From Acidimicrobiales bacterium (GTDB lineage Bacteria; Actinomycetota; Acidimicrobiia; Acidimicrobiales; CADCSY01), in NCBI GenBank assembly GCA_035512495.1, contig DATKDW010000083.1, forward strand, positions 6,045 through 70,044: 64,000 nt of DNA, written 5' to 3'. Below the pieces are notes generated by a model, which worked only from the letters and a program-made list of their open reading frames with translations, did no database searches and had not been told where the DNA came from. This document shows positions 1 to 17,394 of the stretch, piece by piece; the first letter of the stretch is position 1, and every line of letters begins with the position of its first letter. A program made the position numbers and the translations under genes.

Positions 1-1
1 T

Positions 2-1518: not shown

Positions 1519-1620
1519 CGCCCCATAATCCCGACTTCGGTCGATGCCGAGCGTCCCTAACGGCGTGTCGCGAGCGCACGGACGGGCCCGCGCGGCGACC
1601 GCGAACTCAGAATCGCAGTG
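1519..1620 (+). repeat. long-form copy of the intergenic repeat family (degenerate)
   Basis: Begins with CGCCCCATAATCC, one mismatch from the 13-mer CGCTCCATAATCC found at 1981 and 13506. A GC-rich block follows (GCGAGCGCACGGACGGGCCCGCGCGGCGACCGC) that loosely resembles the repeat core. Confidence 0.35.
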
Positions 1621-1969: not shown

Positions 1970-1980
1970 CGCCGATCAGC

Positions 1981-2075
1981 CGCTCCATAATCCAAACGAC
2001 CACACTCCAACACCTCTCGGATATTGGCGCATACGCGGGCCCGCTGCTCAGTCCCAGTCGGCGCGGCGGAGGATC
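1981..2075 (+). repeat. long-form copy of the intergenic repeat family
   Basis: Has the exact 13-mer CGCTCCATAATCC. About 28 nt later comes GGCGCATACGCGGGCCCGCTGC...GGCGCGGCGGAGGATC, related to the cores at 4441, 13547 and 15824. Confidence 0.4.
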
Positions 2076-2130
2076 TCGACTGCAACGTCGCGCACTCGTC
2101 TTACGTCGAGCCGGCCACGGCCTGATGGCA

Positions 2131-2907: not shown

Positions 2908-3055
2908 CGCGGCGCACCCTACGGCCGCCGTGGTGACAGAGCACGAGACTTTCGGCCCCATGGCCGACGTGGTCCGGCCCGAACCCGGCTGGTCTCAGCG
3001 AGGCGTACAGAACGCCGACCGTCGGCGCGGCAAGAAGTGACGTGCGGACGCTGGC

Positions 3056-3595
3056 TTGAGGACGGAGACTCGCGTCGTGGGTGATGCGGACTACGAGGAG
3101 ATTCGGCGGTGCATTGCGAGCGGCACCGCTCGCCTCGAGGTCCGGGCGCTCAGTCCCGACCATCTTGTCGCCATCACTTGGTCCGGGAACCCCACCCACA
3201 TCGAGAACGTGGCGCGCCAGCTCGAACGAGTACCTTCGGGCGAGGTCCAGTACTTGGCCGTCTTCGTCGACGGAGAACCGGTATCGAAGGGCGGTGTCGA
3301 CTTCGCGAAGGAGCCTGGCGCCGGCACCATCTGGCAGCTGGCTACCCACCCTCGGCTCGAAGGTCTCGGGCTCGCCACGACGCTCATCGGAGAGCTCGAG
3401 CTCCGGGCAGCACAGCGCGGCATCACCAACTTGCGGCTAGGTGTCGAGCCAGACAACGAACGCGCCCTCCGTCTCTACGAGCACTTGGGCTACCGCAGGA
3501 TCGGTGAGTCCGAAGCTTCCTGGGAAGCTGAACGCAGTGACGGTTCGCGTTTCCTCCACACGACGAGGATCGCCGAAATGTCAAAGCCAGCCTGA
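3056..3595 (+). CDS. GNAT family N-acetyltransferase
   Basis: The acetyl-CoA motif is LATHPRLEGLGLATTLI, followed by NERALRLYEHLGYR. The start is uncertain: TTG 3056 or GTG 3077. Confidence 0.8.
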   Translation: MRTETRVVGDADYEEIRRCIASGTARLEVRALSPDHLVAITWSGNPTHIENVARQLERVPSGEVQYLAVFVDGEPVSKGGVDFAKEPGAGTIWQLATHPRLEGLGLATTLIGELELRAAQRGITNLRLGVEPDNERALRLYEHLGYRRIGESEASWEAERSDGSRFLHTTRIAEMSKPA

Positions 3596-3622
3596 GTCGG
3601 AGCTGGACCGCACGGAAGGCAC

Positions 3623-3643
3623 CCGAACCAGGCTCGGGTTCGG
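3623..3643 (+). terminator. hairpin downstream of the GNAT gene
   Basis: CCGAACC-aggctcg-GGTTCGG is a 7-bp perfect stem followed by TTG. It lies 28 nt after stop codon 3595. Confidence 0.35.
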
Positions 3644-3736
3644 TTGCAACAGAACGCGCGTCCCGAATGCCACCGTCTCGACCCCAAGACGCGCAAGAGA
3701 ACGGCGCATCGCGCGCACGCTCCGTGCCGGAGCCGA

Positions 3737-4369
3737 TTAGTTCTCGCGCGGGCAGCCAGCTTCGAAGGGAACGCAGTCGAGCAGCGACCCGCCGGCTGCG
3801 GTCCATTGCTGCTCATCGACGGCAACGAGGTGCGCAGCGAGCTCGTTGAGATCGACGCCGACGTCGTATGTCAGCAACGTCGTGGTGTAGTCGGCCGTCA
3901 CTTCGAGGATCACGACCGCCGGATTGCCGTCGACCGCGGCCGACACCAGCGCCGGTTGCCCGTCGACGACCTCCGATCGGAGCTCGAAGCCCGGGAGTTG
4001 ACCGCGCCGCCGTTCGAGACCTGTCCTGTGACCGAAAGTTGTGACGTGCGGGATCGTGTACGAGCCATCGGCGTTGTCCCTGCGAGGTCCGTCGTACTCC
4101 GCGAACCAGTCAACATCCGGGTCCCGCGCCTCAAGTGCGCCGAGGCCTGCCCGGTAGTCGACCGCCTCCGTCAGCTGCCACGTCGGCTCGCCGAGCAGCA
4201 TGAGATGGACTTCGTCTGCCGTTGACTCGGTGCGAGACGTCGAGGTTGCGCTCGCGCTCGGTTGGCTGCTGCCGTCCGTACCGGTGTCATCGCCGCAGGA
4301 GCCAACGACCATGAGCGCGGCTGCAGTCACCAGCCCGGCTCGTGCTCTCGGAGCGCGCCGTCGCCTCAC
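3737..4369 (-). CDS. putative lipoprotein, unknown function
   Basis: The N-terminus MRRRRAPRARAGLVTAAALMVVGSCGDD has a positive n-region, a hydrophobic core and a lipobox-like VGSC. A Ser/Thr-rich linker follows. Confidence 0.65.
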   Translation of the reverse strand: MRRRRAPRARAGLVTAAALMVVGSCGDDTGTDGSSQPSASATSTSRTESTADEVHLMLLGEPTWQLTEAVDYRAGLGALEARDPDVDWFAEYDGPRRDNADGSYTIPHVTTFGHRTGLERRRGQLPGFELRSEVVDGQPALVSAAVDGNPAVVILEVTADYTTTLLTYDVGVDLNELAAHLVAVDEQQWTAAGGSLLDCVPFEAGCPREN

Positions 4370-4382
4370 CGAGACATCCTAG

Positions 4383-4409
4383 TCGCGAGCGCCAAACGCG
4401 CGCTCGCGA
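4383..4409 (-). terminator. perfect 9-bp hairpin between the GNAT (4518) and lipoprotein genes
   Basis: TCGCGAGCG-ccaaacgcg-CGCTCGCGA, read directly from the sequence. Confidence 0.35.
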
Positions 4410-4440
4410 ATCCGGCTTCCGGTCACGGCAGAGCCGCACA

Positions 4441-4512
4441 GACCGGCGCTTCTCCAGCGACGAGCGGGTTGCCGACTGGCGACCAGGAGCGCCGTCCCGA
4501 GCGGCACTTCGG
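4441..4512 (+). repeat. intergenic repeat family, copy A
   Basis: GACCGGCGCTTCTCCAGCGACGAGCGGG...GAGCGGCACTTCGG aligns block-wise with 13547-13625. The CGGCACTTCGG end sits 6 nt from the stop of the minus-strand GNAT gene (4518). Confidence 0.6.
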
Positions 4513-4517
4513 TACGG

Positions 4518-5222
4518 CTACCGATGCGCGTCCTCTGCCAACTCTCGAAGGGACCTCCGTTGACCGCCTCCCTCAACGAAGTTGTCTGCGGACAGCCAAT
4601 TCTTGAAGGCGGGACGGAGCTTTTCCCAGTCAGCATCGGTGATGGCGAACCAGGCGGTGTCGCGGTTGCGGCCCTTGTAGTGCGTCGCCTGCCGGAACGT
4701 TCCCTCGTAGAGGAAGCCGAGTCGCTCGGCGGCCGACCGTGACGGGGCGTTCAAGTCATCGCATTTCCACTCGCAGCGTCGATAACCGAGGTCGAAGCAG
4801 TGGTCGATCATGAGGTAGAGAGCTTCGGTCGCTGCTGTGGTTCGTTGCAGCGACGGAGAGAAGGCGATCGAGCCGATCTCGAGAACACCGCTTTGTTGGT
4901 CGACTCGGAGGTAGCTGGCGAAGCCGACAGGTTTGCTGTCAAGGGTGATGGCGTACGGCTGCCGGTCTGAGTGTCCTGTCATGGCATCGAGTGCGCTTGT
5001 CAGCTCCTCCGGGTTCTGGAACGGGCCGATGGCCATGTAGGTCCAGAGGGATGGGGACGCCTCGGCGAAGGCGGCGAACAGACCGTCGGTGTGCAGCCGC
5101 CTGTCGAGTGGCTCCAATTGAACGAGGTCTCCGGTCAGACCGGTGGGCGATGGCATCGCCGGCGGGGCCCATGCGCCGAGGGCGACGCCGACCGGCTGAC
5201 CGAACTGGTTGACGTCGTGCAC
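4518..5222 (-). CDS. GNAT family N-acetyltransferase (RimJ/RimL-like, about 230 aa)
   Basis: Contains LEIGSIAFSPSLQRTTAATEALYLMIDHCFDLGYRRCEWKCDDLNAPSRSAAERLGFLYEGTFR. Confidence 0.85.
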   Translation of the reverse strand: MHDVNQFGQPVGVALGAWAPPAMPSPTGLTGDLVQLEPLDRRLHTDGLFAAFAEASPSLWTYMAIGPFQNPEELTSALDAMTGHSDRQPYAITLDSKPVGFASYLRVDQQSGVLEIGSIAFSPSLQRTTAATEALYLMIDHCFDLGYRRCEWKCDDLNAPSRSAAERLGFLYEGTFRQATHYKGRNRDTAWFAITDADWEKLRPAFKNWLSADNFVEGGGQRRSLRELAEDAHR

Positions 5223-5698
5223 CTCATGACGGTAGCGACGGTGACTTCGCTGGCAGGTGCGCTTTCCGGCCGTTCCGGGATACTGCGGGCACTGAACCGC
5301 AGCCGCACTCGCCCACGGTCGACGTGGGCGACGCCTAGTCGAACCGGACCGCCGCCGACGACGAGGCCAGCCTCGACGACGGGTGATCGTCCGCTCCGAC
5401 AGTTGGGCACGCGGACAAAAGACGCCTTCCGCCGCAGATGTCGTTCAACCTCTGGCGGTGACGAAGTTGAGGAGATGGTTGGGCACAGAGGGCAGGCAGG
5501 CCTCGCTGTGACGCAGCGAACATCCGCACCGAACGCCCGACGCCGCCCGAACACCGTGGAACGGCTCGCTGCAGCCGCCCAGAACGCGCGCTCCAGAACA
5601 CGGTCATGCCGATCGGGCAAGCCGAGCAGCACTGCGCTTCGCCGAAGCGCTGCGTAGCCGGCGATCTGGGCAGGTCACGGCATCGTTTATCGGTGAGA

Positions 5699-6673
5699 AT
5701 GGGCTTGGTGGAACGACCTCCAGATGCAGATCGGAGAGCGCCTCGGCCGGTGTCGGAGCCGACGCCGAGGGCTGTCGCAGACGTACTCGCTGGGCTCCTC
5801 CCCGGGGTCGACTCAACCGTTGTCGACTGGGGTCAGTGGGACACCGACGGCGATCCCCGGTACCACCGGCGCGGCGTCCTGCTCGCAGGAGGCGAGCTCT
5901 TCGCCAAGTTCGCGTGGTCGGAGGAGGCCGCCGACCCGATCGCACGCGAAGGCCGCATCCTGGAGATCCTCGGACGCACGTCGTTTCCCGCTCCGGAGAT
6001 CGTTGCCGTCCACCCCGACAAGGCTCTGTTCGTGACTCGCCTCGTGCCGGGCGGGCCCGTGACCCCAGCGGGCCTCGGTCAACTGAGCCCGAGGGGCCTC
6101 GACCGCTTCGCCGGCCAGCTCGTCGAGGCCCTCGTGGAGCTTCGCTCCCCCGGGCTGCGAAACGACCTCGTCGCACTCGCCGACCCGAAGCCGCCCAGGG
6201 CCCAGGCAGACCCCGAGGAGCTCCGGGCCGACCTCGAACCGATGATTCGTCCCGATCAGTGGCGTCGCGTGCTCGCACTGCTTGAACGGGTCGAGCTCGT
6301 CCTCGCAACACCAGGGCCTGATCCGGTCGTCCTGCACGGCGACCTGCACGGCTACAACCTCGTCTGGGACGGAGAGCATCTGGCGGCGGTGTGCGACTTC
6401 GAGAGCCTCGCAGTCGGTGACCCTTCCTTCGAGGTCCGGTATTTGCCGGACAACGCCCCCAAGCAGACCTACGTCCGTGCGGTGCTCGACGGGCTTCGCC
6501 GCGCCGGTCACGACGACGATCTGGAGCGCGCACTTGCCTGGCATGTGCTGACTCGTCTGGGCGATGCCCGTTGGCGGACGCTGGCCGGGGTCGATCTCCC
6601 GGGCGGCGGGACGCCTGCGCAGTGGGTCGACGAGCTGTTCGCAGTCCTGGCCGAACACGCTGCCCTCATCTGA
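5699..6673 (+). CDS. aminoglycoside/choline-kinase-type phosphotransferase (APH family)
   Basis: The catalytic loop is VVLHGDLHGYNLVW, with CDFESLAVGDPSFEVRYL (the DFE corresponds to DxG/DFD). The start is placed at ATG 5699. The upstream part of ORF 5606 overlaps repeat-like sequence. Confidence 0.75.
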   Translation: MGLVERPPDADRRAPRPVSEPTPRAVADVLAGLLPGVDSTVVDWGQWDTDGDPRYHRRGVLLAGGELFAKFAWSEEAADPIAREGRILEILGRTSFPAPEIVAVHPDKALFVTRLVPGGPVTPAGLGQLSPRGLDRFAGQLVEALVELRSPGLRNDLVALADPKPPRAQADPEELRADLEPMIRPDQWRRVLALLERVELVLATPGPDPVVLHGDLHGYNLVWDGEHLAAVCDFESLAVGDPSFEVRYLPDNAPKQTYVRAVLDGLRRAGHDDDLERALAWHVLTRLGDARWRTLAGVDLPGGGTPAQWVDELFAVLAEHAALI

Positions 6674-6710
6674 ACAGAGAGTTCGCTCGTTCCGTTCGGG
6701 CGAATGCCGC

Positions 6711-7346
6711 TCAGGGGGCGTCCCATCCGTCGGGCAGTTCAGTTGGTTCGAGCATCTCGTCGGGGACCCCACGGGTCCAGGTCGCCTCATCGAACGGCCA
6801 CGTCCGGTCGCGGATGTCCGCAATGGCTAACTCGGCGGTGGCGTGAATCGATCGAGCTTCGGTGGAGCCGAACAGGCCGACCTCGACTGCGAACTCGAGT
6901 TCGTCGGCGTCCTTCAGCCGCCACTCGTCCAAGTCCGCAGAGACCGTGACATCGAGGACGTCATCACGCGAGTCGAAGCCGACCGTGGTACGGGCCCAAG
7001 GCTGTTCGAGGTTGACGTACCACCCCACGAACCGATTCTCCGTGACATCCCAGGTTCGGATTACCGAGTAGCTGCGGCCGACGGGATGGAGGCGTACGCA
7101 GGGCGGACGGTCCCAGGTGTCGTGGCGTCTCGACCCATCCCATGTGCCCGGCAGGAACGACCTGCCGCGCGGTCCGCCGCGCTCGGCAATTCGCCGCACG
7201 ATCGGCGAGCCAGTCGGCTGGACGACCGCAGCGACGTCGGGCTCATCAAGCAGGACCCGACACCCGAAGACATACCCGACGTCACCACCCGGGCGGGATC
7301 GCCACACCACCTGGGTTCCCGAGGAGAACGGTCGGTCACGACGCAT
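6711..7346 (-). CDS. DUF402 domain protein (FomD-like nucleotide phosphatase fold)
   Basis: WYVNLEQP...DDVLDVTVSADLDEWRLKDADELE is characteristic of DUF402. The start is moved to ATG 7346. Confidence 0.6.
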   Translation of the reverse strand: MRRDRPFSSGTQVVWRSRPGGDVGYVFGCRVLLDEPDVAAVVQPTGSPIVRRIAERGGPRGRSFLPGTWDGSRRHDTWDRPPCVRLHPVGRSYSVIRTWDVTENRFVGWYVNLEQPWARTTVGFDSRDDVLDVTVSADLDEWRLKDADELEFAVEVGLFGSTEARSIHATAELAIADIRDRTWPFDEATWTRGVPDEMLEPTELPDGWDAP

Positions 7347-7494
7347 GCGTCGAGTCTGCACCGGATGCGGAGAGCACCTCTCCCCAAGTGCCAGTAATTG
7401 GCACCAGCTATCAGCCGCTCCGAAATCCGTCACCCTTACCCGACCGGGAACTACCTATCGCCGCGTATTCGGTGATCGAGAGCAGACTGACATT

Positions 7495-8028
7495 GTGAGA
7501 AGGGTTGCCGTAGTCGGAGGTCCCGGGTCTGGGAAGTCGACCGTCGCTCGCCTCATCGCCGACCGACTGGACGCCCCGCTGGTCGAGCTCGACGCCCTGT
7601 GGTGGCAGCCGGACTGGGTGCCGACTGACCTCACCCAGTTCCGCAGCGACGTCCGGACCGTCTCCAACACGCCAGCGTGGGTCATCGAGGGCAACTACCT
7701 CGACGAGGTTGGTCGCGACATCGTCTTGCCGCGGGCCGACACGCTCGTGTGGCTCGATCCGCCCCGCCGGATCGCGATCGGTCGCGCCCTTCGTCGGAGC
7801 GTGGGTCGCCTCGTCCGACGCACCGAGCTCTGGGACACGAACCGGCAAGGGATCTCGACGTTGAGCCCAGCCTCTGTCGTGCGGCTGATCAAGAGATGGC
7901 CGGGCTACTCGAAGCTCATCGAGGAGACGCTCGCCAGCGGCCAGTACCCGCACCTGTCCGTGCACCGTTTGCGCAACGACCGAGAGTTCACCGCCTGGCT
8001 CGATCTCGACGGTCACCAGCACAGATAA
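7495..8028 (+). CDS. small P-loop NTPase/kinase (adenylate-kinase / topology-modulation-like)
   Basis: The Walker A motif is VVGGPGSGKSTVARLIA at the N-terminus when started at GTG 7495. The upstream part of ORF 7117 overlaps the DUF402 gene in antisense. Confidence 0.7.
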   Translation: MRRVAVVGGPGSGKSTVARLIADRLDAPLVELDALWWQPDWVPTDLTQFRSDVRTVSNTPAWVIEGNYLDEVGRDIVLPRADTLVWLDPPRRIAIGRALRRSVGRLVRRTELWDTNRQGISTLSPASVVRLIKRWPGYSKLIEETLASGQYPHLSVHRLRNDREFTAWLDLDGHQHR

Positions 8029-8050
8029 CGTCGACCGAGGCCAGCACGGG

Positions 8051-8488
8051 TCAGGTGTTCGGCCCATGTTGGACTGCGAAGAAGGCGTCAGCCGCGTCGA
8101 TCGAGGAGGGTGTGAAGCGGCACATCCTTGTCGTCGGGAGATCTAGCGATGGCACGAACCGCGGATCCCACGCGGATTGGTCGGCGCCGAGGTACCTCGC
8201 AAACGTCCTCATGGCTCGGCCACGGACCACGGGGATGATCTCGGACCTGCCTCGGGCGCGGACGTGGACTACCTCCCCGGTGACGATGTCGCAGACGTCG
8301 ACGACGACTACGAGTCGCTCGCCGGCGCTGACGAGCCGGTGAAGTACGTTCGCGGTGTCTGTGAGCCAGTAGAACGTTCGCTCCTCATACAAGTACCAGA
8401 CGGGGCGCAAGGTCGGTCCATTCGTGGCCACCCTGGCAACGAGTGATCGTTGAAGGAAGGCGTTGATGTCGACCTGGTCCCCTCGCAC
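8051..8488 (-). CDS. pyridoxamine 5'-phosphate oxidase family protein
   Basis: LVARVATNGPTLRPVWYLYEERTFYWLTD is a typical PPOX split-barrel N-terminus. GTG 8488 is chosen because the longer ORF overlaps the next gene. Confidence 0.65.
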   Translation of the reverse strand: MRGDQVDINAFLQRSLVARVATNGPTLRPVWYLYEERTFYWLTDTANVLHRLVSAGERLVVVVDVCDIVTGEVVHVRARGRSEIIPVVRGRAMRTFARYLGADQSAWDPRFVPSLDLPTTRMCRFTPSSIDAADAFFAVQHGPNT

Positions 8489-8552
8489 ACGCGGATCGTC
8501 GCACGCGGCACGCGTGGACCTCAAAGTCGAACGGGTCAGCTCTTGAGGTGGG

Positions 8553-9035
8553 TCACGTCGGTGGGTCGTAGGTCGCCAGCTCTTCGTCCGAGGGCGCCTC
8601 GTAGCTACCGCACCACTCGTCGAGTTCCGCACGAGCGATCGAGCGCGACGCCCACTTCCCTTCGAGGTCGCGTTCGACGATCCGCCTCCACAGCTCCTCA
8701 ACCGGAGCCGTGACATAGCGCAACTCGACGAGGGCGCCGACGGAGCGGGCGGAGTCCCGTAGAGCCTCCCTCTCCTCACGCGCCCAGACACCCCATTCGA
8801 TGACCACGTTCTCTCCAGCAGAAAGGAGTGTGAGAGCGAGCTCCAACTGGAACTGCTCGATGCGGGCCCGGGCGTCGGCGTCCCAGAGGTCGATCCCAGA
8901 CGCCATCATCCAGTCGTCCGGGCACATCCGAGCCGCAGGCATCGACGCTGCCAGTTCAAGAGCGAGACTGGTCTTGCCGCTGCCAGGAAGCCCGGTGATC
9001 ACCACGAGTCGTCCCACGCCTGACCTGCTGTCCAC
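8553..9035 (-). CDS. AAA_33 / zeta-toxin-like P-loop kinase
   Basis: The Walker A motif is VVITGLPGSGKTSLALELA. The protein is about 160 aa. The start is uncertain; several GTG codons occur at 9035-9041. Confidence 0.6.
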   Translation of the reverse strand: MDSRSGVGRLVVITGLPGSGKTSLALELAASMPAARMCPDDWMMASGIDLWDADARARIEQFQLELALTLLSAGENVVIEWGVWAREEREALRDSARSVGALVELRYVTAPVEELWRRIVERDLEGKWASRSIARAELDEWCGSYEAPSDEELATYDPPT

Positions 9036-9292
9036 CACGAGGACCACGATTGCACAGCGGAGGATGCGGGACTCAGGCCCTTGTGCTGGCGCGACGCCGA
9101 GGCGCTCTCCCTCCGACTCGCTCGAGCCCTCGCCACCTTGGCACCGCACCGATCGTGCGTACCGAACGCCGTCGCAGTGACCCGTCAGCGGCCTCGGTGC
9201 CACGTTCGTCCCGCCGGCAATCGGCGCTGCCTGGCAGGCGCCCAAGCCAGAAATCGACGGGCATCTGCTATTGGACCAGGAAAGATAGGGAT

Positions 9293-10321
9293 GTGGCCCC
9301 TGAGTACGTCATCACCAGGCACGACCCTGCCGAGTTCACTGATCAAGAACTTGCTGCGGGCGTTCGTCTCTACAACACCGTTGAGGCTGAGGTGTGGCCC
9401 GAGGATCCGGTCACGCCCGTGGGCGATGCGATCGCCAGATCACGCGCCGTTCCCTCGACGGTTGGGCGTACAGCGTTCCGTGCTTGGTCCGACGGAACGT
9501 TGGTTGGAGAGGTCGAGGTCGCGGTCGACTCAGAACACGACGACAACCCGGACTTGTTGACGTGCCAGATCATCGTCCGAGGCGAATACCGCCGACAGGG
9601 TGTCGGGACGGGTCTGCTGGAACGCGTGACGGAGTTCGCTCGGAGTCATGGTCGCCGACGCCTCGTCGGGAAGACCTACTCGCGAGTTCCCGATGGCGCG
9701 CAGTTCGCTCGACGAGTTGGCGCTGTCCAGAAGAGCGAGTCTCACACCAACCACCTGCCGTTGGCTGAAGTTGACCGAGCACTCTTGGAGTCGTGGGTAC
9801 GCGACGGCTCGCAGCGAGCCCACGGCTATGAGCTGTTGTCATGGGACGACACCGTCCCCGACGAACACCTTGGGGCGTTCCTCGACCTTCTCCTCGTGAT
9901 GAACGATGCCCCGACCGATGACCTCGAACTCAACGACTTCACGATCTCTCCTGGACAGTGGCGAGACGTTCAAGCCCAAGCTGCGGCGGTCGGACAGCAG
10001 CGATGGTTCCTGGTGGCGCGCCGGTCGAGCGACGGCGCGCTCGCCGCACTCCACGATCTCGCATGGGTCCCAGCATTCCCGCAGGTGATGTGGACCGGCT
10101 CCACCGGAGTGCGGCGAGAGGACAGGGGCCACGCTCTCGGCAAGTGGTTGAAGGCATCCATGACACTGCGCGTCCTCGCGGAGCGGCCCGGCGTCTCCGA
10201 CATCCGAACAGACAACGCGACAAGCAACGAAGCCATGCTCTCCATCAACCACGCCATGGGCTATCGGCCCCTGTTCGCGATTCGCCACTGGGAGCTACTG
10301 GTGGAGAAGAGTCAAGCCTAG
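9293..10321 (+). CDS. tandem (two-domain) GNAT acetyltransferase
   Basis: Two GNAT-like halves are present: IIVRGEYRRQGVGTGLLERV, and a C-terminal VRREDRGHALGKWLKA...NEAMLSINHAMGYR. GTG 9293 follows AGGGA. Confidence 0.7.
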   Translation: MAPEYVITRHDPAEFTDQELAAGVRLYNTVEAEVWPEDPVTPVGDAIARSRAVPSTVGRTAFRAWSDGTLVGEVEVAVDSEHDDNPDLLTCQIIVRGEYRRQGVGTGLLERVTEFARSHGRRRLVGKTYSRVPDGAQFARRVGAVQKSESHTNHLPLAEVDRALLESWVRDGSQRAHGYELLSWDDTVPDEHLGAFLDLLLVMNDAPTDDLELNDFTISPGQWRDVQAQAAAVGQQRWFLVARRSSDGALAALHDLAWVPAFPQVMWTGSTGVRREDRGHALGKWLKASMTLRVLAERPGVSDIRTDNATSNEAMLSINHAMGYRPLFAIRHWELLVEKSQA

Positions 10322-10423
10322 CTTTTCCCTTCTCACAACCCGCCGCGAGGGCTTCGCTCGGTCTCGAACCTGCGGCCCTCGCCAGAGACCAGTCCGAGCC
10401 CGTAGCCCCGGCACCGAACCAAG

Positions 10424-10538
10424 CCCCGACGTGCCGATCACCAGCGAGCCTCCGGCCGGGACCGCTCCGGGGAGCGACCGCTCCGATCATCCACTCCCGC
10501 TGGCCTCGACGGTGCGCGAGCCGGCAATCGGCGCGGGT
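10424..10538 (-). repeat. intergenic repeat family, copy E (reverse orientation relative to copies A and B)
   Basis: The reverse complement ends in GATCGGCACGTCGGGG and contains CCAGCGGGAGTGGATGATCGGAGCGG, matching A and B block-wise. It is about 85% identical by eye to copy F over about 95 nt. Confidence 0.6.
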
Positions 10539-10599
10539 CCGAGTCACCAGCGCGCATGGCGCGCGTGACAGCGTCGGGCCCGACGGGCACCATGCGGTC

Positions 10600-11139
10600 A
10601 TGGCTCATCTGGTCGTACTCGTCGGGCCGGTCGGCGCCGGCAAGAGCACGGTCGCCGGTCGGCTTGCGCAGCTTGTGAGGCAGAACGGCATGACCGCGGC
10701 AGACGTCGACATGGACGACGTCGCATTCATGCAGTGCGGCGGCGACGATGTGGAGGAGTTCTGGCGGCGGGCGGCAGTCGCGACGGCCGGGCTCATTCGG
10801 GCATGGTTCGACGCCGGCGTCGACGTTGTCATCACACACGGCCCGTTCTTCGAGTCCGGTGGGTTCGAGATCCTCCGGCACGCGCAACCGGTCGAAGTCG
10901 ACGTCCACCACATTCTGCTCCGCGTCACAGCCGAGGTCGCCATCACCCGTGTCCAGAGCGATCCGACCCGAGGCATTTCGAAGGATCCGACGTTTGTCCG
11001 GGACTCGAACGATCGGCTGCGAGGGCTCAGCGACCTGCTCCCGGTCATGAACCTCGAGCTCGACACGACTCAACGCGGCCCCGACGAGATCGCAGCCGAC
11101 GTGATGGCTGCCGTCACCGCTCCGACGCAACACGCCTGA
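10600..11139 (+). CDS. small P-loop kinase (AAA_33 / chloramphenicol-phosphotransferase-like size)
   Basis: MAHLVVLVGPVGAGKSTVAGRLA is a Walker A motif at the N-terminus. The rest of ORF 9958.. overlaps the previous gene and repeat E. Confidence 0.7.
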   Translation: MAHLVVLVGPVGAGKSTVAGRLAQLVRQNGMTAADVDMDDVAFMQCGGDDVEEFWRRAAVATAGLIRAWFDAGVDVVITHGPFFESGGFEILRHAQPVEVDVHHILLRVTAEVAITRVQSDPTRGISKDPTFVRDSNDRLRGLSDLLPVMNLELDTTQRGPDEIAADVMAAVTAPTQHA

Positions 11140-11238
11140 GTGCCAGCGGGCTGCCGCCGGGACCGCTCCGGGGGAGACCGCTCCGATCATCCAGTCGCGC
11201 TGGCCGTGACGGCGCGCGAGCCGGCAATCGGCGCGCCG
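11139..11238 (-). repeat. intergenic repeat family, copy F (direct repeat of copy E)
   Basis: CCAGCGGGCTGCCGCCGGGACCGCTCCGGGGGAGACCGCTCCGATCATCCAGTCGCGCTGGCCGTGACGGCGCGCGAGCCGGCAATCGGCGCG matches 10441-10535. It starts at the kinase stop codon. Confidence 0.65.
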
Positions 11239-11386
11239 GGAGCTGTTCGACGAGCTGAACGTTCTGCTGCGCTCAAGGGAGTTGCCTGGCATCGACTCGC
11301 ACATGAGGAATAGGTAACGGCCGGGCCGCGGCGCGTGCTCCTGGGACGGCGCCGCCGACGGGTGCTCCTACGGACCGCTGATCGGG

Positions 11387-11743
11387 CTAGCGGAAGAAGC
11401 CCCCGAATGGGCCGAAGTAGGTGGCCCCGAAGCCGTCGAGGACGCCCTTGACCTCGTCGCTCGGCGTTCCGAACACCTGCAGACTCACCGGATCGACGCA
11501 TGCCAGGAACCGCTCCGCGAAGTTGGCTCCGAAGTTCCCGAGGTGCACCATCGTCGCGGCGGAATCGGAGTATCGCTCGTAGATCGCGAGCTTGCCTTCG
11601 GCTTCATCGATGAACCACTCGTAACCCAAGGCGCCCGACTCGTCCTTCGTAGACGACACCATGTCGGCCATGAGCGACCGAAGGTTGTCGAGCTCGCCGT
11701 TCTTCACAGCGACCTGAATCACCCACGAGACTTCGTCTGCCAT
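11387..11743 (-). CDS. ABM-domain (antibiotic biosynthesis monooxygenase-like) protein
   Basis: 118 aa, with WVIQVAVKNGELDNLRSLMADMV...YEWFIDEAEGKLAIYERYSDSAATMVH, the typical ferredoxin-like ABM pattern. Confidence 0.65.
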   Translation of the reverse strand: MADEVSWVIQVAVKNGELDNLRSLMADMVSSTKDESGALGYEWFIDEAEGKLAIYERYSDSAATMVHLGNFGANFAERFLACVDPVSLQVFGTPSDEVKGVLDGFGATYFGPFGGFFR

Positions 11744-11990
11744 TGCAAACCTCCTCGACTGTCTGGGTCAGTCGATTCCCACCCGACGGAACAAGACAGG
11801 ACCCGAGCGACTGCCTCGCCTTAGATCCGGGCTGGGAACACGGATCGCAACGCAACCTAGCCGACGCACCTCTCCTCGCACCGAGAACGCAGACTGCTTC
11901 CTTCCGCGAGCGCGACCGATCGACGGTTCCAGCAGCTCCGCGCCGAGGCCGCACCGAGCGGGCAAGCAGAACGCGCCGACCGATCCCGGC

Positions 11991-12170
11991 GAGGCCGCGG
12001 AACAGATCCTGTTCGTTGGCGACAACCTGCACGACGACATCGGCGGAGCAACCAGGTCCGGCCTGCCGTCAGTCCACATGGATCGAGACGGGTCCTGCCA
12101 GGCTGACGACCACGCCGACATCGCGAGTTGCGTCAGAGACCTCAGATCGCTGCTGGCGTGGCTTGGCTGA
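11991..12170 (+). pseudogene. HAD-superfamily hydrolase, C-terminal remnant
   Basis: A frame not listed in the ORF track reads EAAEQILFVGDNLHDDIGGATRSGLPSVHMDRDGS...LAWLG*. This is HAD motif IV (VGDxxxDIxGA). No start codon or motifs I-III were recognisable upstream. Confidence 0.5.
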
Positions 12171-12285
12171 GCAGCACCGATCACCCGCGCAATGGACCCG
12201 GGCCTCGCGTGCTCCAATCCGTACCGATCGGCGCGTAGCGCGCCGCCGCCCACGAGATGGCATCTGACACCAGAGGGATGGCGGC

Positions 12286-12582
12286 TCAGGCGTCAGGGGC
12301 GGGCTGCCGGAGTGCGTGGCTATCGAGCTCCATTTGGTAGATGCGCTTGAAGTCCTCGATTGCTGCCAACGCTCGCTTCCCATGCGGGCTTGCCGCCATC
12401 TCGCCCTCCTGTCCTTTCACGGGTTCGAAAGAGTGCAGGACGATCTTTTCGAGGAGCTGTCCGAGGGTGAGTCCTTCGAGCTCGGCGAGCGCCTTCAGGA
12501 CCTTCACCATGCTCCGCTCCATCCGGACGCCGATTTGGACGCGATCGACGCGCGTCGGAGCATTCCGTTGGGTCGGGACCAT
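12286..12582 (-). CDS. ribbon-helix-helix (CopG/antitoxin-like) small protein
   Basis: RVQIGVRMERSMVKVLKALAELEGLTLGQLLEKIVL has the beta-strand plus two-helix RHH pattern. 98 aa. Confidence 0.5.
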   Translation of the reverse strand: MVPTQRNAPTRVDRVQIGVRMERSMVKVLKALAELEGLTLGQLLEKIVLHSFEPVKGQEGEMAASPHGKRALAAIEDFKRIYQMELDSHALRQPAPDA

Positions 12583-12622
12583 GGGACCAAGTTACCGTAG
12601 TCCCACCGACCTAGGAGAGACC

Positions 12623-13447
12623 ATGTCCGATCCGTACGCGCTCGCGGTGCACAGCTCCTTCGACGAAGTCGAACCGCAGTTCCATGCCGTGCTGGAAGCG
12701 AGCCTTGACCCCCGTGGTCCAGATGCGCTCTTCGACATCGTCGCTGGGCTCGGACTCGAGAGCGGCGCGGTCGTGCTCGACGCCGGGTGCGGCCGCGGGC
12801 GACAGTCACTGGAGCTGGCGCGGCGATTCGGCTTCGACGTGCTCGGCGTCGACCCCGTCGACCGGCACGCGCCAATCGACAAACAGCTCGCCGAGCGACC
12901 CCTGACGGCCGGATCGGTGCGCTTCACCGAGGGGAGATTCGAGCAGCTGCCAGTCGAGGACTCCTCGATCGACCTGATCTTCTGCCGTGACTCGATCATG
13001 TTCGGTGACCTCGCCGTGACGGCAACCGAGTTCCACCGCGTCTTGCGTCCCGGCGGCCGAGGTCTCGTCTACCTCGTCCTCACCGGTCCACTGATGAGCG
13101 AGCCCGAGGCCGACCACTTCGACCATCTCATGCGCGGCCGAACGCTTCGCCCGGCCGAGATCGACGCAGCACTTGAACGCAACGGTCTCACTGTCAACGA
13201 CCGCATCGACTACAGCGGCGAGTGGGCGGAACGATCCCAGGAGCAGGACGGAGAACCTGCTCGACGACTCCTGTTCGCATCTCGACTACTGAGAAGGCCC
13301 GATCACTACATCCAGAAGTTCGGACAAGACCACTACGACATCATGCTCGGCGACTGCCTCTGGCACGTCTACCGCATGATCGGGAGACTCTCCGGCTACG
13401 CCTGCACCTTCACGCGACCGTTGGCTGCTTCTCCGCCGCCCGAGTAG
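12623..13447 (+). CDS. class I SAM-dependent methyltransferase
   Basis: ATG 12623 is preceded by AGGAGA. Motif I is VVLDAGCGRGRQSLELA, followed by IDLIFCRDSIMF and LRPGGRGLV. Confidence 0.85.
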   Translation: MSDPYALAVHSSFDEVEPQFHAVLEASLDPRGPDALFDIVAGLGLESGAVVLDAGCGRGRQSLELARRFGFDVLGVDPVDRHAPIDKQLAERPLTAGSVRFTEGRFEQLPVEDSSIDLIFCRDSIMFGDLAVTATEFHRVLRPGGRGLVYLVLTGPLMSEPEADHFDHLMRGRTLRPAEIDAALERNGLTVNDRIDYSGEWAERSQEQDGEPARRLLFASRLLRRPDHYIQKFGQDHYDIMLGDCLWHVYRMIGRLSGYACTFTRPLAASPPPE

Positions 13448-13505
13448 AGCCGCCATTGATCGCCAAGGTCGGCGAGACCGAGCAACTGATGCCGCACCGA
13501 GCGCG

Positions 13506-13625
13506 CGCTCCATAATCCGCATCGGCTCCTGCACTTGACCCGAGCAGAACGGCGCTTCTCCAGCGGCGATCGGGACGGCGGGTGCTAGCCAGGCGAGTCC
13601 TCGCGATCGGCACTTCGGCTGCGGG
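13506..13625 (+). repeat. intergenic repeat family, copy B (long form, with the 13-mer)
   Basis: CGCTCCATAATCC is followed 28 nt later by GAACGGCGCTTCTCCAGCGGCGATCGGGACGG...GCGATCGGCACTTCGGCTGCGGG. The CGGCAC end faces the stop (13642) of a minus-strand ORF. Confidence 0.6.
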
Positions 13626-13641
13626 ACCGAGATCAGTCGAT

Positions 13642-14022
13642 CTAGATGAGATGGCCCTCAAAGAACTCGGAGACGTTGTCGAAGCCGGCGGCGGTCAACA
13701 TGCGCTCCTCCTGGGGTGCTGGGTCGGGTGCGGCATCCCGGGTGACGACCGCCAGCACAGCACCTGCGGCTTCGGCCTCAGCTACCGCTCGCACTGCCAC
13801 CTCCGAGTCGATGTTTCCGAGGATGCAGACCGGTCCGCCAGGCGCATAGACCGGCGGCGCAGGCACGAGCATCGCCGTGACCCCTGCGAGCTCCACCTCG
13901 GCAAAACCGACCTCCGCTGGCTGGGAAGGGTCCAGAGGACACACCCACCAACGCGAGACAACGGTCAGTCCGAGGTCCGACAGCATCTGACGCTTTGCGG
14001 TGTCCTGGCGCGCGGTCACCAC
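13642..14022 (-). CDS. hypothetical protein (possibly the chimeric 3' part of a decayed gene)
   Basis: A 126-aa ORF with no recognisable motif. It overlaps the out-of-frame tail of the APH-like ORF 13778..14374. Confidence 0.3.
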   Translation of the reverse strand: MVTARQDTAKRQMLSDLGLTVVSRWWVCPLDPSQPAEVGFAEVELAGVTAMLVPAPPVYAPGGPVCILGNIDSEVAVRAVAEAEAAGAVLAVVTRDAAPDPAPQEERMLTAAGFDNVSEFFEGHLI

Positions 14023-14058
14023 CCGGACTCGGACCGGTCGGGCGAGGGGCTACGGGCC

Positions 14059-14374
14059 AGGGGAAGGGGTACGCCTCGCAAGGGTTGCCCATGGCGACTG
14101 CCTCGGGGATGGCCAGCGGCAACTGGGGGCGTGCCCAGTCGAGCCAGCGGTGGTGGGCTTCGATCGCCTCGTAGCTCGACGCGAAGCTCGGCGCCCGAGG
14201 AAGCCGTAGGACCAAGTCATGACCGAGCCGGAAGATGGCGTTCACGGTCCCGGACGACCGGAGACGCCGCAGCGGCAGCCCTCGCCAGCGAGGGAACTGG
14301 GTGTCGACGAGAGAGCGCGCGAGGGAGTCGTCGATGGGAACCTCGTCGCCGTGGAGGGGAGTGTGATCGGTCAT
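14059..14374 (-). pseudogene. APH-family phosphotransferase, N-terminal lobe only (frameshifted or truncated)
   Basis: The first 105 or so aa of ORF 13778..14374 (SGTVNAIFRLGHDLVLRLPR...LPLAIPEAVAMGNPCEAYPFPW) look like an APH N-lobe. After that the frame turns to G/R/P-rich nonsense, and no HxDLxxxN catalytic loop appears in any frame. Confidence 0.45.
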
Positions 14375-14396
14375 AGACTGGCCTACAGCACCGGTG

Positions 14397-14855
14397 TCAC
14401 CGAACAGGGCTCCCGGCGCTCTCGACCGTTCTGAGGAAGGTCAGGCTCGGCCAATCGATCGTGAGTCCCTCGCCATCATCAAGCGCCACCCACCGACCGG
14501 CGTAGAAGTTGAGAACCTCCGCACACGGGGTCGGTTCCCCGTGCGTCCAGCGGCGAAGGTGCTCTCCGACCACGTGCTCAGCCCTGTCGATGCCGCCGCG
14601 GTTCTGCGCGATCACCGCGCGACCGGGCTTGGTCCGCTTGCGACCGGTGCTCCTGAAGGTCGCCCCCGCGGCGACGCTGCCCCAGAAGCCATCATCGATG
14701 CCGACGGTACCTTCGACCAGCAACTGGAGGAGGTCGTGCGGCATGCCGCCGCGGCCGAGGGCCATCGGGGTGCCGGGGATCCTGGTTCGCTTCCCTCGAA
14801 CTGCCTCCCAGTACGAAAGGCGGTCCTCCACCATCTTGAAGAAGGTGATGCGCAC
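14397..14855 (-). CDS. hypothetical protein
   Basis: A 152-aa ORF of normal composition with a GTG start. No family was recognised. Confidence 0.45.
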   Translation of the reverse strand: MRITFFKMVEDRLSYWEAVRGKRTRIPGTPMALGRGGMPHDLLQLLVEGTVGIDDGFWGSVAAGATFRSTGRKRTKPGRAVIAQNRGGIDRAEHVVGEHLRRWTHGEPTPCAEVLNFYAGRWVALDDGEGLTIDWPSLTFLRTVESAGSPVR

Positions 14856-14901
14856 GAACCGCCACCGTAGGAGCGACTACCTATCACCGACACCAAATAT
14901 C

Positions 14902-14952
14902 GAACGCGGCCGCCTCTCCGGCGAGAAGGATCGGCGCGTCGCGAGCGGTCAA
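14902..14952 (+). repeat. intergenic repeat family, short copy I
   Basis: GAACGCGGCCGCCTCTCCGGCGAGAAGGATCGGCGCGTCGCGAGCGG shares the GAACGSSGC...CTCC.GCG...GATCGGC blocks. It lies 3' of the GT2 gene (stop 14961). Confidence 0.4.
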
Positions 14953-14960
14953 GTCTTCTG

Positions 14961-15749
14961 TCAGGTCGGAGGTGACTCGCAAGCGGCGATCAGAGACGGC
15001 CCGTCGAGCGCTCCCACCTCAGATCGGAAGCGGGTCAGGATCGACTCGTATCTCTCGCGGGCACCTGGGATGCCTCCGAAGTGGGGTGCGTGATGCTCGA
15101 GGGCCCACTCGTAGAGCGGGTGAGAGCGATCATCGCTGGTCACGACGCCCGCGAGGCTTGCCCTGCCCCGGTGAATGAGATACCCGTCGGCTGCGAAAGG
15201 GAAGTTCTCGGCAGCAAGGCCAGCCTGCTGGGCGGCTGCGAGGAGCTCGAACGACGGGTCACCATCGTCCCGGAAGGTGGGTGCACCAGGGTGCCAGATC
15301 TGCATGGGATCGATGAGCAGGCTGTACAGCTCCAAGCGGTGCATCTCATGCCATGGATCCCAGTGGCGCTCGCCGACGATCGCGGCGCCGCTCCCAGCGA
15401 CGGCCAGTGCCTCACGGAGCACGTCGCCACGGCGTATGACCACATCGGAGTCGAGGATCCACACGTAGCGGGGCGGTGTCGGTTGCTCGACAAGCTCTCC
15501 CATCGCCTGGTTCAGGGCTGGGCCGTGGTGAGTGTTCTCGTCGTTGGCGAGCAGTCGGCAGAGGCCTGCCTCGGACGCTTCGGCGAGCAGCCGACCTGAC
15601 CCGTCGCTCGAGCCGTTGTCCACCACAACCACCTCGACGTCATCGTCGAGGACGCGGTGTAGCGACCAAAGAAGCAGCGCGGTGAACTCGATGGTGTTGA
15701 ACGACACGGTGACGACGCTGACCCGGCCTTGACCGATGCTCCCGGACAC
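14961..15749 (-). CDS. glycosyltransferase family 2
   Basis: VSVVTVSFNTIEFTALLLWSL...VVVVDNGSSDGS is the classic GT2 N-terminus. A DSD motif occurs in WILDSDVV. Confidence 0.8.
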   Translation of the reverse strand: MSGSIGQGRVSVVTVSFNTIEFTALLLWSLHRVLDDDVEVVVVDNGSSDGSGRLLAEASEAGLCRLLANDENTHHGPALNQAMGELVEQPTPPRYVWILDSDVVIRRGDVLREALAVAGSGAAIVGERHWDPWHEMHRLELYSLLIDPMQIWHPGAPTFRDDGDPSFELLAAAQQAGLAAENFPFAADGYLIHRGRASLAGVVTSDDRSHPLYEWALEHHAPHFGGIPGARERYESILTRFRSEVGALDGPSLIAACESPPT

Positions 15750-15823
15750 AGAACGAGTATCGACGACGATCGCACCTATCGGGCACTCAGTATCCCCACG
15801 AGCTGGCGCATCGCCTCCGCCCC

Positions 15824-15880
15824 GATCGGCGCATCTCCAGCGTCGATCAGGACGGATGGCGGCTAGGAATCCTGGGCCAG
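15824..15880 (+). repeat. intergenic repeat family, copy C (not adjacent to a gene 3' end)
   Basis: GATCGGCGCATCTCCAGCGTCGATCAGGACGGATGGCGGCTAGG matches the 5' half of copy B (GGCGCTTCTCCAGCGGCGATCGGGACGGCGGGTGCTAGCC). Confidence 0.5.
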
Positions 15881-15997
15881 CCGCGTGTCTGAGTGATGGT
15901 CTCGAGCACGCCGGAGCGCTCTGCCCGCTCAGCAGATCGACGTGCGGATCCGTCGGTGCGAGACTGGGACGACACGGCCATGGATCAGGAGCGCACC

Positions 15998-16393
15998 ATG
16001 TCGGGCCTCGCCATCATCACCGAAGCGTGCATCGGCGTGAAGGACCGTGCGTGTGTCGACGTGTGCCCGGTCCAGTGCATCTACGAGCTCGATCAGGCCA
16101 AGGGTGTGTTGTTCTCCGAGGACGAAGCCGGCAGCGGCGAGATCGAGAACACCCACGCGCCCGACCCGGACTCCATCGGGGTGTTCGGGGACAGCCTGCT
16201 GTACGTGAACCTGGAGGAGTGCACGTCGTGCACCGCCTGCTACCAACCCGACGTCTGCCCTGTCGGTGCGATCTATACCGAGGAAGCCGTGCCCGACGGC
16301 ACCGATCCCAAGGCCTACAACGCCGAGGACCCGCACAAGGGCCACGACCACACCTTCTTCATTCAGCTCAGCCGCGACGTCTTCGCCGACTGA
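15998..16393 (+). CDS. ferredoxin, two Fe-S cluster motifs separated by an unusually long insertion
   Basis: MSGLAIITEACIGVKDRACVDVCPVQCIY carries the Cx7Cx3CP motif. About 50 aa later comes CTSCTACYQPDVCPVGAIY. ATG 15980 is an alternative start. Confidence 0.75.
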   Translation: MSGLAIITEACIGVKDRACVDVCPVQCIYELDQAKGVLFSEDEAGSGEIENTHAPDPDSIGVFGDSLLYVNLEECTSCTACYQPDVCPVGAIYTEEAVPDGTDPKAYNAEDPHKGHDHTFFIQLSRDVFAD

Positions 16394-16688
16394 CGGTGCC
16401 GGCCCGCCATGAGCGGAAACCGGGCAGCCTGGGGGCGGTGTGCCCCGAAGCGAGCGCGATCGCCGGCATCCGATGCGTCGTGTCGACCCCCCTTGAGACC
16501 GAGAGCAGCAACCTCGACGAGGTGTCGCTGTCGCCTCCAGCTGGCCCACGGCTTGACCGTGACGGAAGACGGGCGTTGATCACGGGCCTCCTGTCGGCGA
16601 TGCCAGGCCACTCGGCGGGCCGTCTGAGCAGGACGCCACACGCCTCTGGGCGATGTCTACCGATCGCGGAAGCCTCAAATGCGGACGC

Positions 16689-16745
16689 CTATCGGCGGCA
16701 CCGATCTCCAGAGCGCGTGGTCAGCACGCCGGCACTGCCGCGGTG
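16689..16745 (+). repeat. intergenic repeat family, degenerate copy D
   Basis: CTATCGGCGGCACCGATCTCCAGAGCGCG...CGCCGGCACTGCCGCGG lies 3' of the minus-strand relE (stop 16766), in the same gene-relative orientation as copies A, B and I. Confidence 0.4.
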
Positions 16746-16765
16746 AGCCTCTCCGCGCCGACTGG

Positions 16766-17029
16766 TCAGGATCTGTAGACGTCTCGGCGGTGACCCACGC
16801 TCACCACGAGCACGACGAGGCGACGGTCGTGCACCTCGTAGATGATCCGATAGTCACCGACCCGAACTCGGTAGGCGCGCTCCTCGCCCTTGAGGGCCAC
16901 ACACCCCGGCGGACGAGGCTCGTCTGCCAGCAGGTCGATCGCAGCTCGGATCCGCTGCTGCTCACGCCTGGGCAAACGGGCAAGCGACTTCACCGCTCGA
17001 CGCGCGATGTGGACCTCATAGCGGCTCAC
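16766..17029 (-). CDS. relE: type II toxin, RelE/ParE superfamily
   Basis: 87 aa, with YRVRVGDYRIIYEVHDRRLVVLVVSVGHRRDVY. It overlaps the upstream antitoxin gene by 4 bp. Confidence 0.85.
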   Translation of the reverse strand: MSRYEVHIARRAVKSLARLPRREQQRIRAAIDLLADEPRPPGCVALKGEERAYRVRVGDYRIIYEVHDRRLVVLVVSVGHRRDVYRS

Positions 17030-17277
17030 GCCAAGCCCAGGTCCGCCTTGACCTCATCCCAAGGCACGTAGTCGTCCTCTTCCCGAGCGGCTTCGAGCTC
17101 GTATCGATCGATCGCGTCCTCAGCCGCCTCGACGACCTGGTCGTACAGGTCGGCGTCGAGGATCACGGCCACGCGTCGACCTCGCCGCGTGACATAGACG
17201 GGCTCGCGTGATCGCCTCGCCTCGTCGATGATCTCGGCAAGCCGGCTCCTCGCTTCGCTCACGGCGATATCGCTCAT
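17026..17277 (-). CDS. type II antitoxin, Phd/YefM family
   Basis: MSDIAVSEARSRLAEIIDEARRSREPVYVTRRGRRVAVILDADLYD has an acidic C-terminus. ATG 17292 is an alternative start. Confidence 0.85.
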   Translation of the reverse strand: MSDIAVSEARSRLAEIIDEARRSREPVYVTRRGRRVAVILDADLYDQVVEAAEDAIDRYELEAAREEDDYVPWDEVKADLGLA

Positions 17278-17335
17278 GTACGAATCGTACATGAAGCCTC
17301 GGCGGGGGCGCCTCCTCGGGCTCGGGCGCCTTCCA

Positions 17336-17374
17336 CGGCAGAGGTCAGGGGTTCGAGTCCCTTTGCGCCCACCA
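17336..17374 (+). other. tRNA 3' remnant (variable loop, T-arm, acceptor 3' strand, encoded CCA); not a complete tRNA
   Basis: CGGCAGAGGTC-AGGGG-TTCGAGT-CCCTT-TGCGCCC-A-CCA. The T-loop TTCGAGT and stem AGGGG/CCCTT are canonical. No D-arm or intact anticodon arm lies upstream. Confidence 0.6.
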
Positions 17375-17394
17375 CGCGCCTGCGCCTTCCGGCG

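Follow-up and report, generated by a model that had tools for sequence, protein, structure and literature searches.

Gene-associated repeats in an Acidimicrobiales accessory island as candidate junctions of an integron-like cassette system

The 64,000-nt stretch of an Acidimicrobiales bacterium analyzed here (contig DATKDW010000083.1, referred to as the window) carries a family of intergenic repeats, 80-135 nt in length, that follow the stop codons of unrelated small genes in an accessory island. The repeats are proposed to be junction elements of an integron-analogous gene-cassette system with a non-canonical site, located in the cargo of tRNA-integrated mobile islands in Acidimicrobiales and related Actinomycetota. 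The probability of this reading is estimated at about 0.5. The supporting evidence consists of statistically significant copies confined to the island, a co-oriented array on a metagenomic contig (L071), the orientation of 13 out of 13 full copies relative to the upstream gene, two copies inside a mobilizable element at a second locus (L145), the mosaic surroundings of a GNAT gene, and the nature of the island border.

In the proposed system, a putative site-specific recombinase would bind three related motifs of the repeat and exchange single-gene units at these sites. Such exchange would build co-oriented arrays such as that of L071, and recombination between inversely oriented sites, or later rearrangement, would produce the mixed-orientation and partly truncated state of the window.

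Repeat copies and their architecture

Each element is described in the sense direction of its upstream gene, on the plus strand for B and C and on the minus strand for A, D, F, and H. Four full copies (A, B, C, and D) and two truncated copies (H and F) are significant, and all of them lie inside the island. The island, the copies, one degenerate partial copy, two candidates, and the gene between B and C are as follows.

1..17390 (17.4 kb), both strands: low-GC accessory island of ~22 small unrelated genes, extending past the left window end
4382..4528, minus strand: copy A, full, A/D subtype; terminus CCGAAGTGCCGCTCG, beginning 5 nt past the GNAT(-) stop at 4518 (4498-4512, reverse complement)
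5567..5698, minus strand: copy H, truncated; distal two thirds only, without the GTGCC terminus, flanked by the GNAT(-) and APH(+) 5' ends
9140..9228, plus strand: degenerate partial copy, B/C subtype; distal 15-mer GCCGGCAATCGGCGC at 9213-9227, 65 nt before the GNAT(+) start at ~9293
10424..10537, plus strand: copy B, full, B/C subtype; terminus CCGACGTGCCGATC ~105 nt past the GNAT(+) stop at 10321
10593..11139, plus strand: P-loop (GPVGAGKST) kinase-like orphan gene between B and C (700 nt from start to start of these copies)
11125..11235, plus strand: copy C, full, B/C subtype; degenerate terminus overlapping the kinase-like(+) stop at 11139, with no co-oriented gene next
13485..13634, minus strand: copy D, full, A/D subtype; terminus CCGAAGTGCCGATCGCG, beginning 24 nt past the APH(-) stop at 13642 (13602-13618, reverse complement)
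14875..14955, minus strand: candidate copy E, right after the GT2(-) stop at 14961; by-eye architecture TTGACCGCTCG ... GCGCCGATCC ... GGTGATAGG, without statistical support
15763..15895, minus strand: copy F, truncated; distal part kept, without the GTGCC terminus, between two gene 5' ends
16690..16765, minus strand: candidate copy G, after the ParE(-) stop at 16766; by-eye likeness only (GCAGTGCCGGCG ... CTGGAGATCGGTGCCGCCGATAGG), statistically unsupported

Copies A and D share 74% identity over 82 ungapped nucleotides (blastn E 4.6e-12) and align over 140 nt at a blastn E-value of 5e-16, while B and C are 89% identical across a 66-nt core (E ~1e-24). The truncated copies both match D in blastn (F at E 3e-8, H at E 4e-6) and are matched by nhmmer as well. 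A hidden Markov model (HMM) built from external copies only detects B at E 1.5e-13 and C at E 2.4e-13. The covariance model scores B at 91.2 bits; its score of 47.2 bits for A is that of a training member. The 14-mer GAKCGGCACKTCGG is exact in A(+), D(+), and B(-), and the 15-mer GCCGGCAATCGGCGC at the end of B and C has its third exact copy at 9213-9227 and is absent from the 46.6-kb remainder of the window (the core). The core contains no copy by nhmmer or by the covariance model, which confirms that no copies had been noticed there in a first-pass annotation.

That annotation had listed seven copies, five of which are significant. The other two, at 14902-14952 and 16689-16745, both have blastn E-values above 0.03 and no nhmmer match at E <= 10; the covariance model gives the former 12.9 bits (E 4.1) and does not match the latter. 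Likewise, the observation that the CGGCAC end faces the neighboring stop codon applies to the four full copies, while the two remaining instances are not significant as copies. The two copies placed between gene 5' ends (H and F) proved to be genuine, truncated members, and the actual A/D-type unit is longer (~135-150 nt) than first delimited.

The probability that the family reflects chance similarity of G+C-rich intergenic DNA is close to nil. The two noise-level sites at 14902 and 16689 would suit chance, as would the over-representation of GYRCCGAKC-like sub-motifs in the core. Against it stand E-values of 1e-12 to 1e-25 among the window copies, the external-only HMM matches (E ~1e-13), an independent covariance-model match in L145, and the fact that none of the shuffled sequences equals the observed motif counts. 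The chance explanation is thereby ruled out for copies A to D, F, and H. Three short sub-motifs (GYRCCGAKC, GSWRATMGG, and CGCKCYCCATAATCC) were discarded as too degenerate; they are found in the core as well. A coding origin of the A/D repeat was also rejected, since its mismatches lack 3-base periodicity and no frame is conserved.

Full copies have a common layout in which the stop codon is followed by 0-30 nt (~105 nt in B), a first motif (m1), a variable stretch, and two further motifs (m2 and m3). The m1 motif reads CCGA(A/C)GTGCCG(C/A)TCG and is separated from m2 by a variable G+C-rich stretch of 30-50 nt. In the B/C type m2 reads CACCGATCAACCNTTCGCGCTGG; its A/D form is C(C)CCG(A/C)TCG(Y)CGCTGGAGAAGCGCCG. 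The m3 motif, GCGCGAGCCGGCAAT(CGGYGC), lies ~10 nt past m2, with the next start codon 20-70 nt further on. The m1 and m2 motifs are direct repeats of one motif of which m3 is an inverted copy, and m3 is therefore able to pair with either.

What unites the A/D and B/C types is m1, with its exact 14-mer, and their position; the interiors have diverged. The external-only HMM that detects B and C gives E-values of 0.44 for A and 2.6 for D. The two types are best regarded as subtypes of one superfamily; this link, the weakest part of the observation, is drawn from the shared gene-proximal terminus and position.

In each of the 13 full copies with a readable upstream gene, the GTGCC end is turned toward the stop codon of that gene, which is co-oriented (six from L071; A, B, C, and D; one from L145; and two from a third locus, L157, the L157 pair being assigned by eye at the noise level of the covariance model). 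In the window, full copies start 0-110 nt past the stop of a same-strand gene and point their CCGA(A/C)GTGCCG end at it. On the distal side, A ends 19 nt before a lipoprotein gene start at 4369, B ends with GCGAGCCGGCAATCGGCGCG 56 nt before the kinase-like gene start at 10593, and the GT2(-) start at 15749 lies ~15-35 nt beyond the distal end of F.

Several further observations concern individual copies. Within copy H, a near-perfect 17-nt palindrome, GCGCTTCGCCGAAGCGC, at 5634-5650(+) takes the place of the CTCCAGCG block of A, D, and F. The kinase-like ORF between B and C belongs to no Pfam family, and no homolog of it was detected among 5.8 billion proteins. The idea that the sequence upstream of B is a relic of the 3' end of this gene was rejected, as the similarity is not significant and was reached by 35 of 300 shuffles. 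The APH gene behind copy D, 13642-14374(-), is split into overlapping ORFs at 13642-14022 and 13778-14374 and looks like a frameshifted pseudogene. Logan contig L001 (run SRR8556377) is 100% identical to window positions 11177-13218, which places the same organism in that run; the contig ends inside copy C, and the repeat probably breaks short-read assemblies.

Weak blocks resembling the A/D distal block (...GCCGCTCCATAATCC...) occur on the plus strand at 1507-1533, 1965-1993, 7400-7428, and 12174-12200. All four are intergenic and lie in the island, and with nhmmer E-values of 0.1-1.4 each is individually too weak to call. They may be eroded junctions.

Arrays and mosaics in other loci

The clearest arrangement is found in L071, a metagenomic contig of 6978 bp, which contains six significant copies and one degenerate copy, all on the plus strand and within 5 kb. 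From one copy to the next, the starts are spaced by 440-1510 nt. In five cases a copy begins 8-31 nt past the stop of a different, unrelated plus-strand ORF, and in the sixth it overlaps its ORF at the 3' end. The upstream ORFs encode DUF6461, an unknown protein, DUF1841, DUF4349, a small ORF product, and PNPOx; the degenerate copy lies behind a methyltransferase gene, and an IS3 transposase gene lies after the array.

In L145, two tandem co-oriented copies flank a unit of 250 nt, which appears to encode a protein of ~65 amino acids on the opposite strand, a putative membrane protein as judged by eye. The second copy is an independent match to the covariance model (42 bits, E 2.4e-5), and its terminus is identical to that of copy D over 17 nt. 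The copies lie inside a tRNA-integrated, integrative mobilizable element; positions 1-6130 of the contig contain tRNA-Pro (46-122), a tyrosine integrase gene (57-1304, minus strand), and a TrwC relaxase gene (1743-4451, minus strand). One site per unrelated ORF, in co-orientation, is found in L071 and L145, and partly in the window.

The gene carrying copy A provides a view of a single unit in several surroundings.

4518..5222, minus strand: GNAT gene of the RimJ/RimL type (Pfam) carrying copy A at its 3' end; a single-gene unit

This GNAT occurs in four different neighborhoods including the window, at 80-89% nucleotide identity, and the homology of the unit ends ~50-80 nt before the start codon and at most 15 nt after the stop. 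In L157, positions 1140-1942 are 88.7% identical to window positions 5304-4503. The L157 gene retains its stop codon and, after an identical 5-nt spacer, CCGA(A/C)GTGCC; beyond this point the sequences diverge. Because the terminus is shared at this distance, the element either predates the split or travels with the gene. A possible second element was seen by eye behind the first gene of L157, where the covariance model is at noise (17 bits, E 0.76). No elements were found in the more distant GNAT contexts L158 and L159.

Other searches for relatives returned nothing further. A strict B/C two-block pattern has no match in metagenomes, and neither has the m2 core in viral contigs. A distant search of PLSDB with the L071 unit matched its PNPOx coding part only. 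No Rfam family matches the repeats, either at the gathering threshold or at E <= 1, and no description of such repeats was found in the literature searched. A scan of genome contigs with GGCGCWTCTCCAGCGNCGAKC gave 62 loci, all of which were set aside as single chance matches in diverse phyla.

Mechanism and alternative explanations

The position of the repeats right after stop codons and their gene-relative orientation would also suit a 3'-end module, that is, a lineage-specific extragenic element similar to repetitive extragenic palindromes (REPs) and bacterial interspersed mosaic elements (BIMEs), or a 3' untranslated region (UTR) module. Such an element would work through RNA or DNA, for example as a transcript 3' end, mRNA stabilizer, insulator, or regulator-binding site, and would be copied behind genes of this island lineage without mobilizing them. 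Some folding data agree with this explanation: for A and several of the L071 copies, the predicted fold is more stable than in shuffles (whole-element z of -2 to -3), one L071 variable region reaches a z of -6, and a minimal hairpin, GGTGCCGGTGATCCGGCACC, follows a stop codon in L155, another of the GNAT neighborhoods. The lack of a detectable recombinase, described below, is in its favor as well. Overall, however, folding is no better than in shuffles. The candidate m2-m3 and m1-m3 hairpins have 70-74% of cells paired and the terminal inverted repeats contain bulges; the variable region has a mean z of -0.53 (p 0.30), and single-strand DNA folds of the elements are inconsistent. The window copies lack a T-tract in sequence, and a terminator scan gave eight sites versus 5.5 expected from shuffles, none of them at a copy. 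Mixed fold z-scores and the missing Rfam match likewise fail to place the repeats among intrinsic terminators or structured 3' UTRs, and a terminator function, considered in the first-pass annotation, or a hairpin function has no statistical support from folding or covariation. Further points against a 3'-end module are that no gene of the 46.6-kb core is followed by a copy, that the unrelated L071 genes carry one copy each, that the L145 pair flanks a small reverse ORF, and that the truncated copies F and H lie between gene 5' ends. Taken together, this explanation is considered rather unlikely.

No sigma-70 promoter was found in a scan of the island, and where TTGAC occurs, in some of the L071 copies, no proper -10 hexamer accompanies it. 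Conservation extends to the sequence and fixed arrangement of three related motifs, and not to fold stability; together with gene-relative position and orientation, this fits a DNA site recognized by a protein better than an RNA structure.

A still less probable explanation is a miniature inverted-repeat transposable element (MITE), a non-autonomous element with imperfect terminal inverted repeats that inserts itself into intergenic mobile-island DNA. The ends of the repeats are indeed imperfect inverted repeats (GTGCCG-CTCG-(G)CGC and GCG-CGAG-(C)CGGCA(A)), the length of 80-135 nt is appropriate, an IS3 transposase adjoins the L071 array, and the assembly break inside copy C in the Logan contig suggests further copies in that genome. 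No target-site duplications were found at the copies, however, and the interiors are highly variable and uneven in length. Independent insertion would not give all 13 full copies the orientation of their upstream gene and a narrow distance from its stop, nor does it account for a core without copies or for an orthologous GNAT in L157 with the terminus at the same 5-nt distance.

The cassette reading faces difficulties of its own, which concern the sites, the enzyme, the locus, and the rarity of the family. A regular-expression scan for RYYYAAC-N35-130-GTTRRRY on both strands of the island, the core, and L071 gave zero matches, as the first-pass annotation had reported; the ends of the elements read GTGCCG ... 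CCGGCAA instead of attC cores. Covariation in the m2-m3 and m1-m3 hairpins does not rise above that of shuffles, and whole-element fold z-scores show no consistent fold (A -3.1, D +1.6, B +0.6, C > 0). The candidate island ORFs submitted to Pfam, like the ORFs of L071 and L155-L157, include no recombinase; all these arrays run off the contig or window ends. The integrase of L145 adjoins tRNA-Pro, is of the ordinary tRNA-site type, and lies ~4.3 kb from the nearer element. Neither an excision product nor a presence/absence polymorphism of the same array was seen. The GNAT homologs in L155 (84%) and L156 (80%) have other neighbors and lack m1. In the window, units lie on both strands with ~13 strand switches, and the convergent pairs at 6673/6711 and 8028/8051 leave no space for an element; since units occur in both orientations and truncated copies sit at strand switches, the locus is not a clean array. 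Finally, a 21-nt pattern had only the chance matches described above in 185,579 GTDB species genomes, and a gapped pattern derived from the shared blocks retrieved 88 metagenome stretches with three true members, so that the family is rare. The cassette or mobilization signal raised in the first-pass annotation gains from the L071 array, L145, the GNAT mosaicism, and the confinement to the island, and loses from the missing recombinase and the mixed-orientation window with its truncated copies.

We infer that the ~13 strand switches, with the truncated copies F and H and the partial copy 9140-9228 at switch points, result from inversions or decay. Two options exist for the unit that would move in a cassette system. 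The body of the element may travel with the upstream gene, as in integrons, which fits C and D. Alternatively, it may travel with the downstream gene, which fits F, H, 9140-9228, and the break of window/L157 homology after GTGCC.

Among known systems, the repeats resemble the attC sites of chromosomal cassette arrays in placement, length, end symmetry, and gene content. As in attC/cassette arrays, including clusters of attC sites lacking integron integrases (CALIN) and the Vibrio cholerae repeats (VCRs), which are long, homogeneous sites in sedentary chromosomal integrons of Vibrio, one repeat lies behind each unrelated, mostly small gene in a fixed orientation. Arrays are co-oriented in L071, and the repeats resemble attC in size (~60-140 nt) and in having imperfect inverted ends around a variable center. 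The short distance to the next start codon and the toxin-antitoxin pair in the window island are further similarities. In contrast to attC, the RYYYAAC/GTTRRRY cores are absent, an additional internal motif (m2) is conserved, and sequence is conserved more than structure, with no sign of a folded single-strand substrate. In contrast to integrons, no IntI, attI, or Pc was found where the arrays run off the contig or window ends, and window units lie on both strands. Because the defining sequence test for attC fails, the elements are not filed as attC sites or as an integron. In Actinobacteria, IntegronFinder surveys report no complete integron, for a reason that is called unclear (PMC4889954, PMC9024848).

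REP and BIME elements share with these repeats an intergenic position, often just 3' of genes, a palindromic character, and lineage specificity. REPs are 20-40 nt in length, number hundreds per genome behind core genes, alternate in orientation in BIMEs, and are mobilized by REP-associated tyrosine transposases (RAYTs). The elements described here, in contrast, span 80-135 nt, are missing from the 46.6-kb core, and are co-oriented with genes, and no RAYT was seen. MITEs of the Correia and enterobacterial repetitive intergenic consensus (ERIC) type are similar in being intergenic, 100-150 nt long, and bounded by terminal inverted repeats, and they can carry promoter or terminator activity; they differ from the present repeats, in which inverted repeats are accompanied by no target duplications, a variable interior, and a strict orientation (13 of 13 copies) and stop distance. 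The pdif (XerC/D) modules of Acinetobacter plasmids are comparable in that single genes or small sets are bounded by short recombination sites in either orientation. The pdif sites are 28 bp in length and consist of two 11-bp arms and a 6-bp spacer. A likeness of the ...GCGCTCCATAATCC block to dif/Xer sites was considered and dropped, as inspection by eye revealed only a faint GCGC-ATAAT in the A/D distal block and no XerD arm.

Genomic setting and significance

Bases 1-17390 have a G+C content of 64-68%, compared with 70-77% in the core. The first gene beyond the right border encodes TauD, 17395-18450(-), and the DNA downstream of it differs in the relatives L064 and L066 (TauD relatives have 75-79% amino-acid identity). 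No repeat elements were found in the TauD relatives L064-L066. The border itself is marked by a tRNA-like fragment.

17324..17374, plus strand: tRNA-like 3' fragment CTTCCACGGCAGAGGTCAGGGGTTCGAGTCCCTTTGCGCCCACCA comprising T arm, acceptor 3' strand, and CCA, in the gap from the Phd start to the TauD stop

This fragment coincides exactly with the right GC-content border of the island. The Rfam tRNA model scores it at 16.3 bits, which is below threshold, ARAGORN calls no tRNA, and the window contains no second copy. The fragment probably represents an att remnant left by a tRNA-integrating element, and its loop CTTCCAC suggests tRNA-Gly (UCC). On the grounds of the GC drop, the differing DNA downstream of TauD, and the tRNA-like border, the region is regarded as an accessory island, which is probably the cargo of a tRNA-integrating element with its other end to the left of the window.

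By Pfam analysis of the submitted candidate ORFs, the island encodes two methyltransferases, a sulfotransferase, four GNATs, two APHs, DUF402, PNPOx, ABM, three P-loop kinases, GT2, ferredoxin, and ParE/Phd. GNATs, methyltransferases, APH, a toxin-antitoxin pair, and many small unknowns constitute the content expected of chromosomal cassette arrays. The ParE/Phd toxin-antitoxin pair, 16766-17292(-), occupies the last position in the island and adjoins the tRNA-like fragment. A very similar mixed-orientation set of small accessory genes is present at 1-14334 of L158, a JGI contig of 42 kb whose GNAT is 65% identical. The set includes a sulfotransferase, GNATs, a zeta-toxin-like kinase, a glyoxalase, and an SDR, and the repeats are absent from it.

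A broader proposal can be put forward tentatively, at odds somewhat below even. Acidimicrobiia (Actinomycetota) might have their own gene-capture system, functionally integron-like with sites that are not homologous, in which tripartite sites of ~110 nt (GTGCCG ... CACCGATCAACC ... CCGGCAAT) and a putative recombinase would handle single-gene cassettes as the cargo of tRNA-integrating elements. If the repeats are instead a 3'-end module, they would still be a useful marker for one mobile-island lineage. If a repeat-delimited cassette array with a different site does exist in this phylum, an undiscovered recombinase would be implied, and the three motifs together with model R1 would provide a handle for mining accessory genes of uncultured soil and sediment Actinomycetota. 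Modular gene capture would then be wider and mechanistically more varied than searches based on attC and IntI detect.

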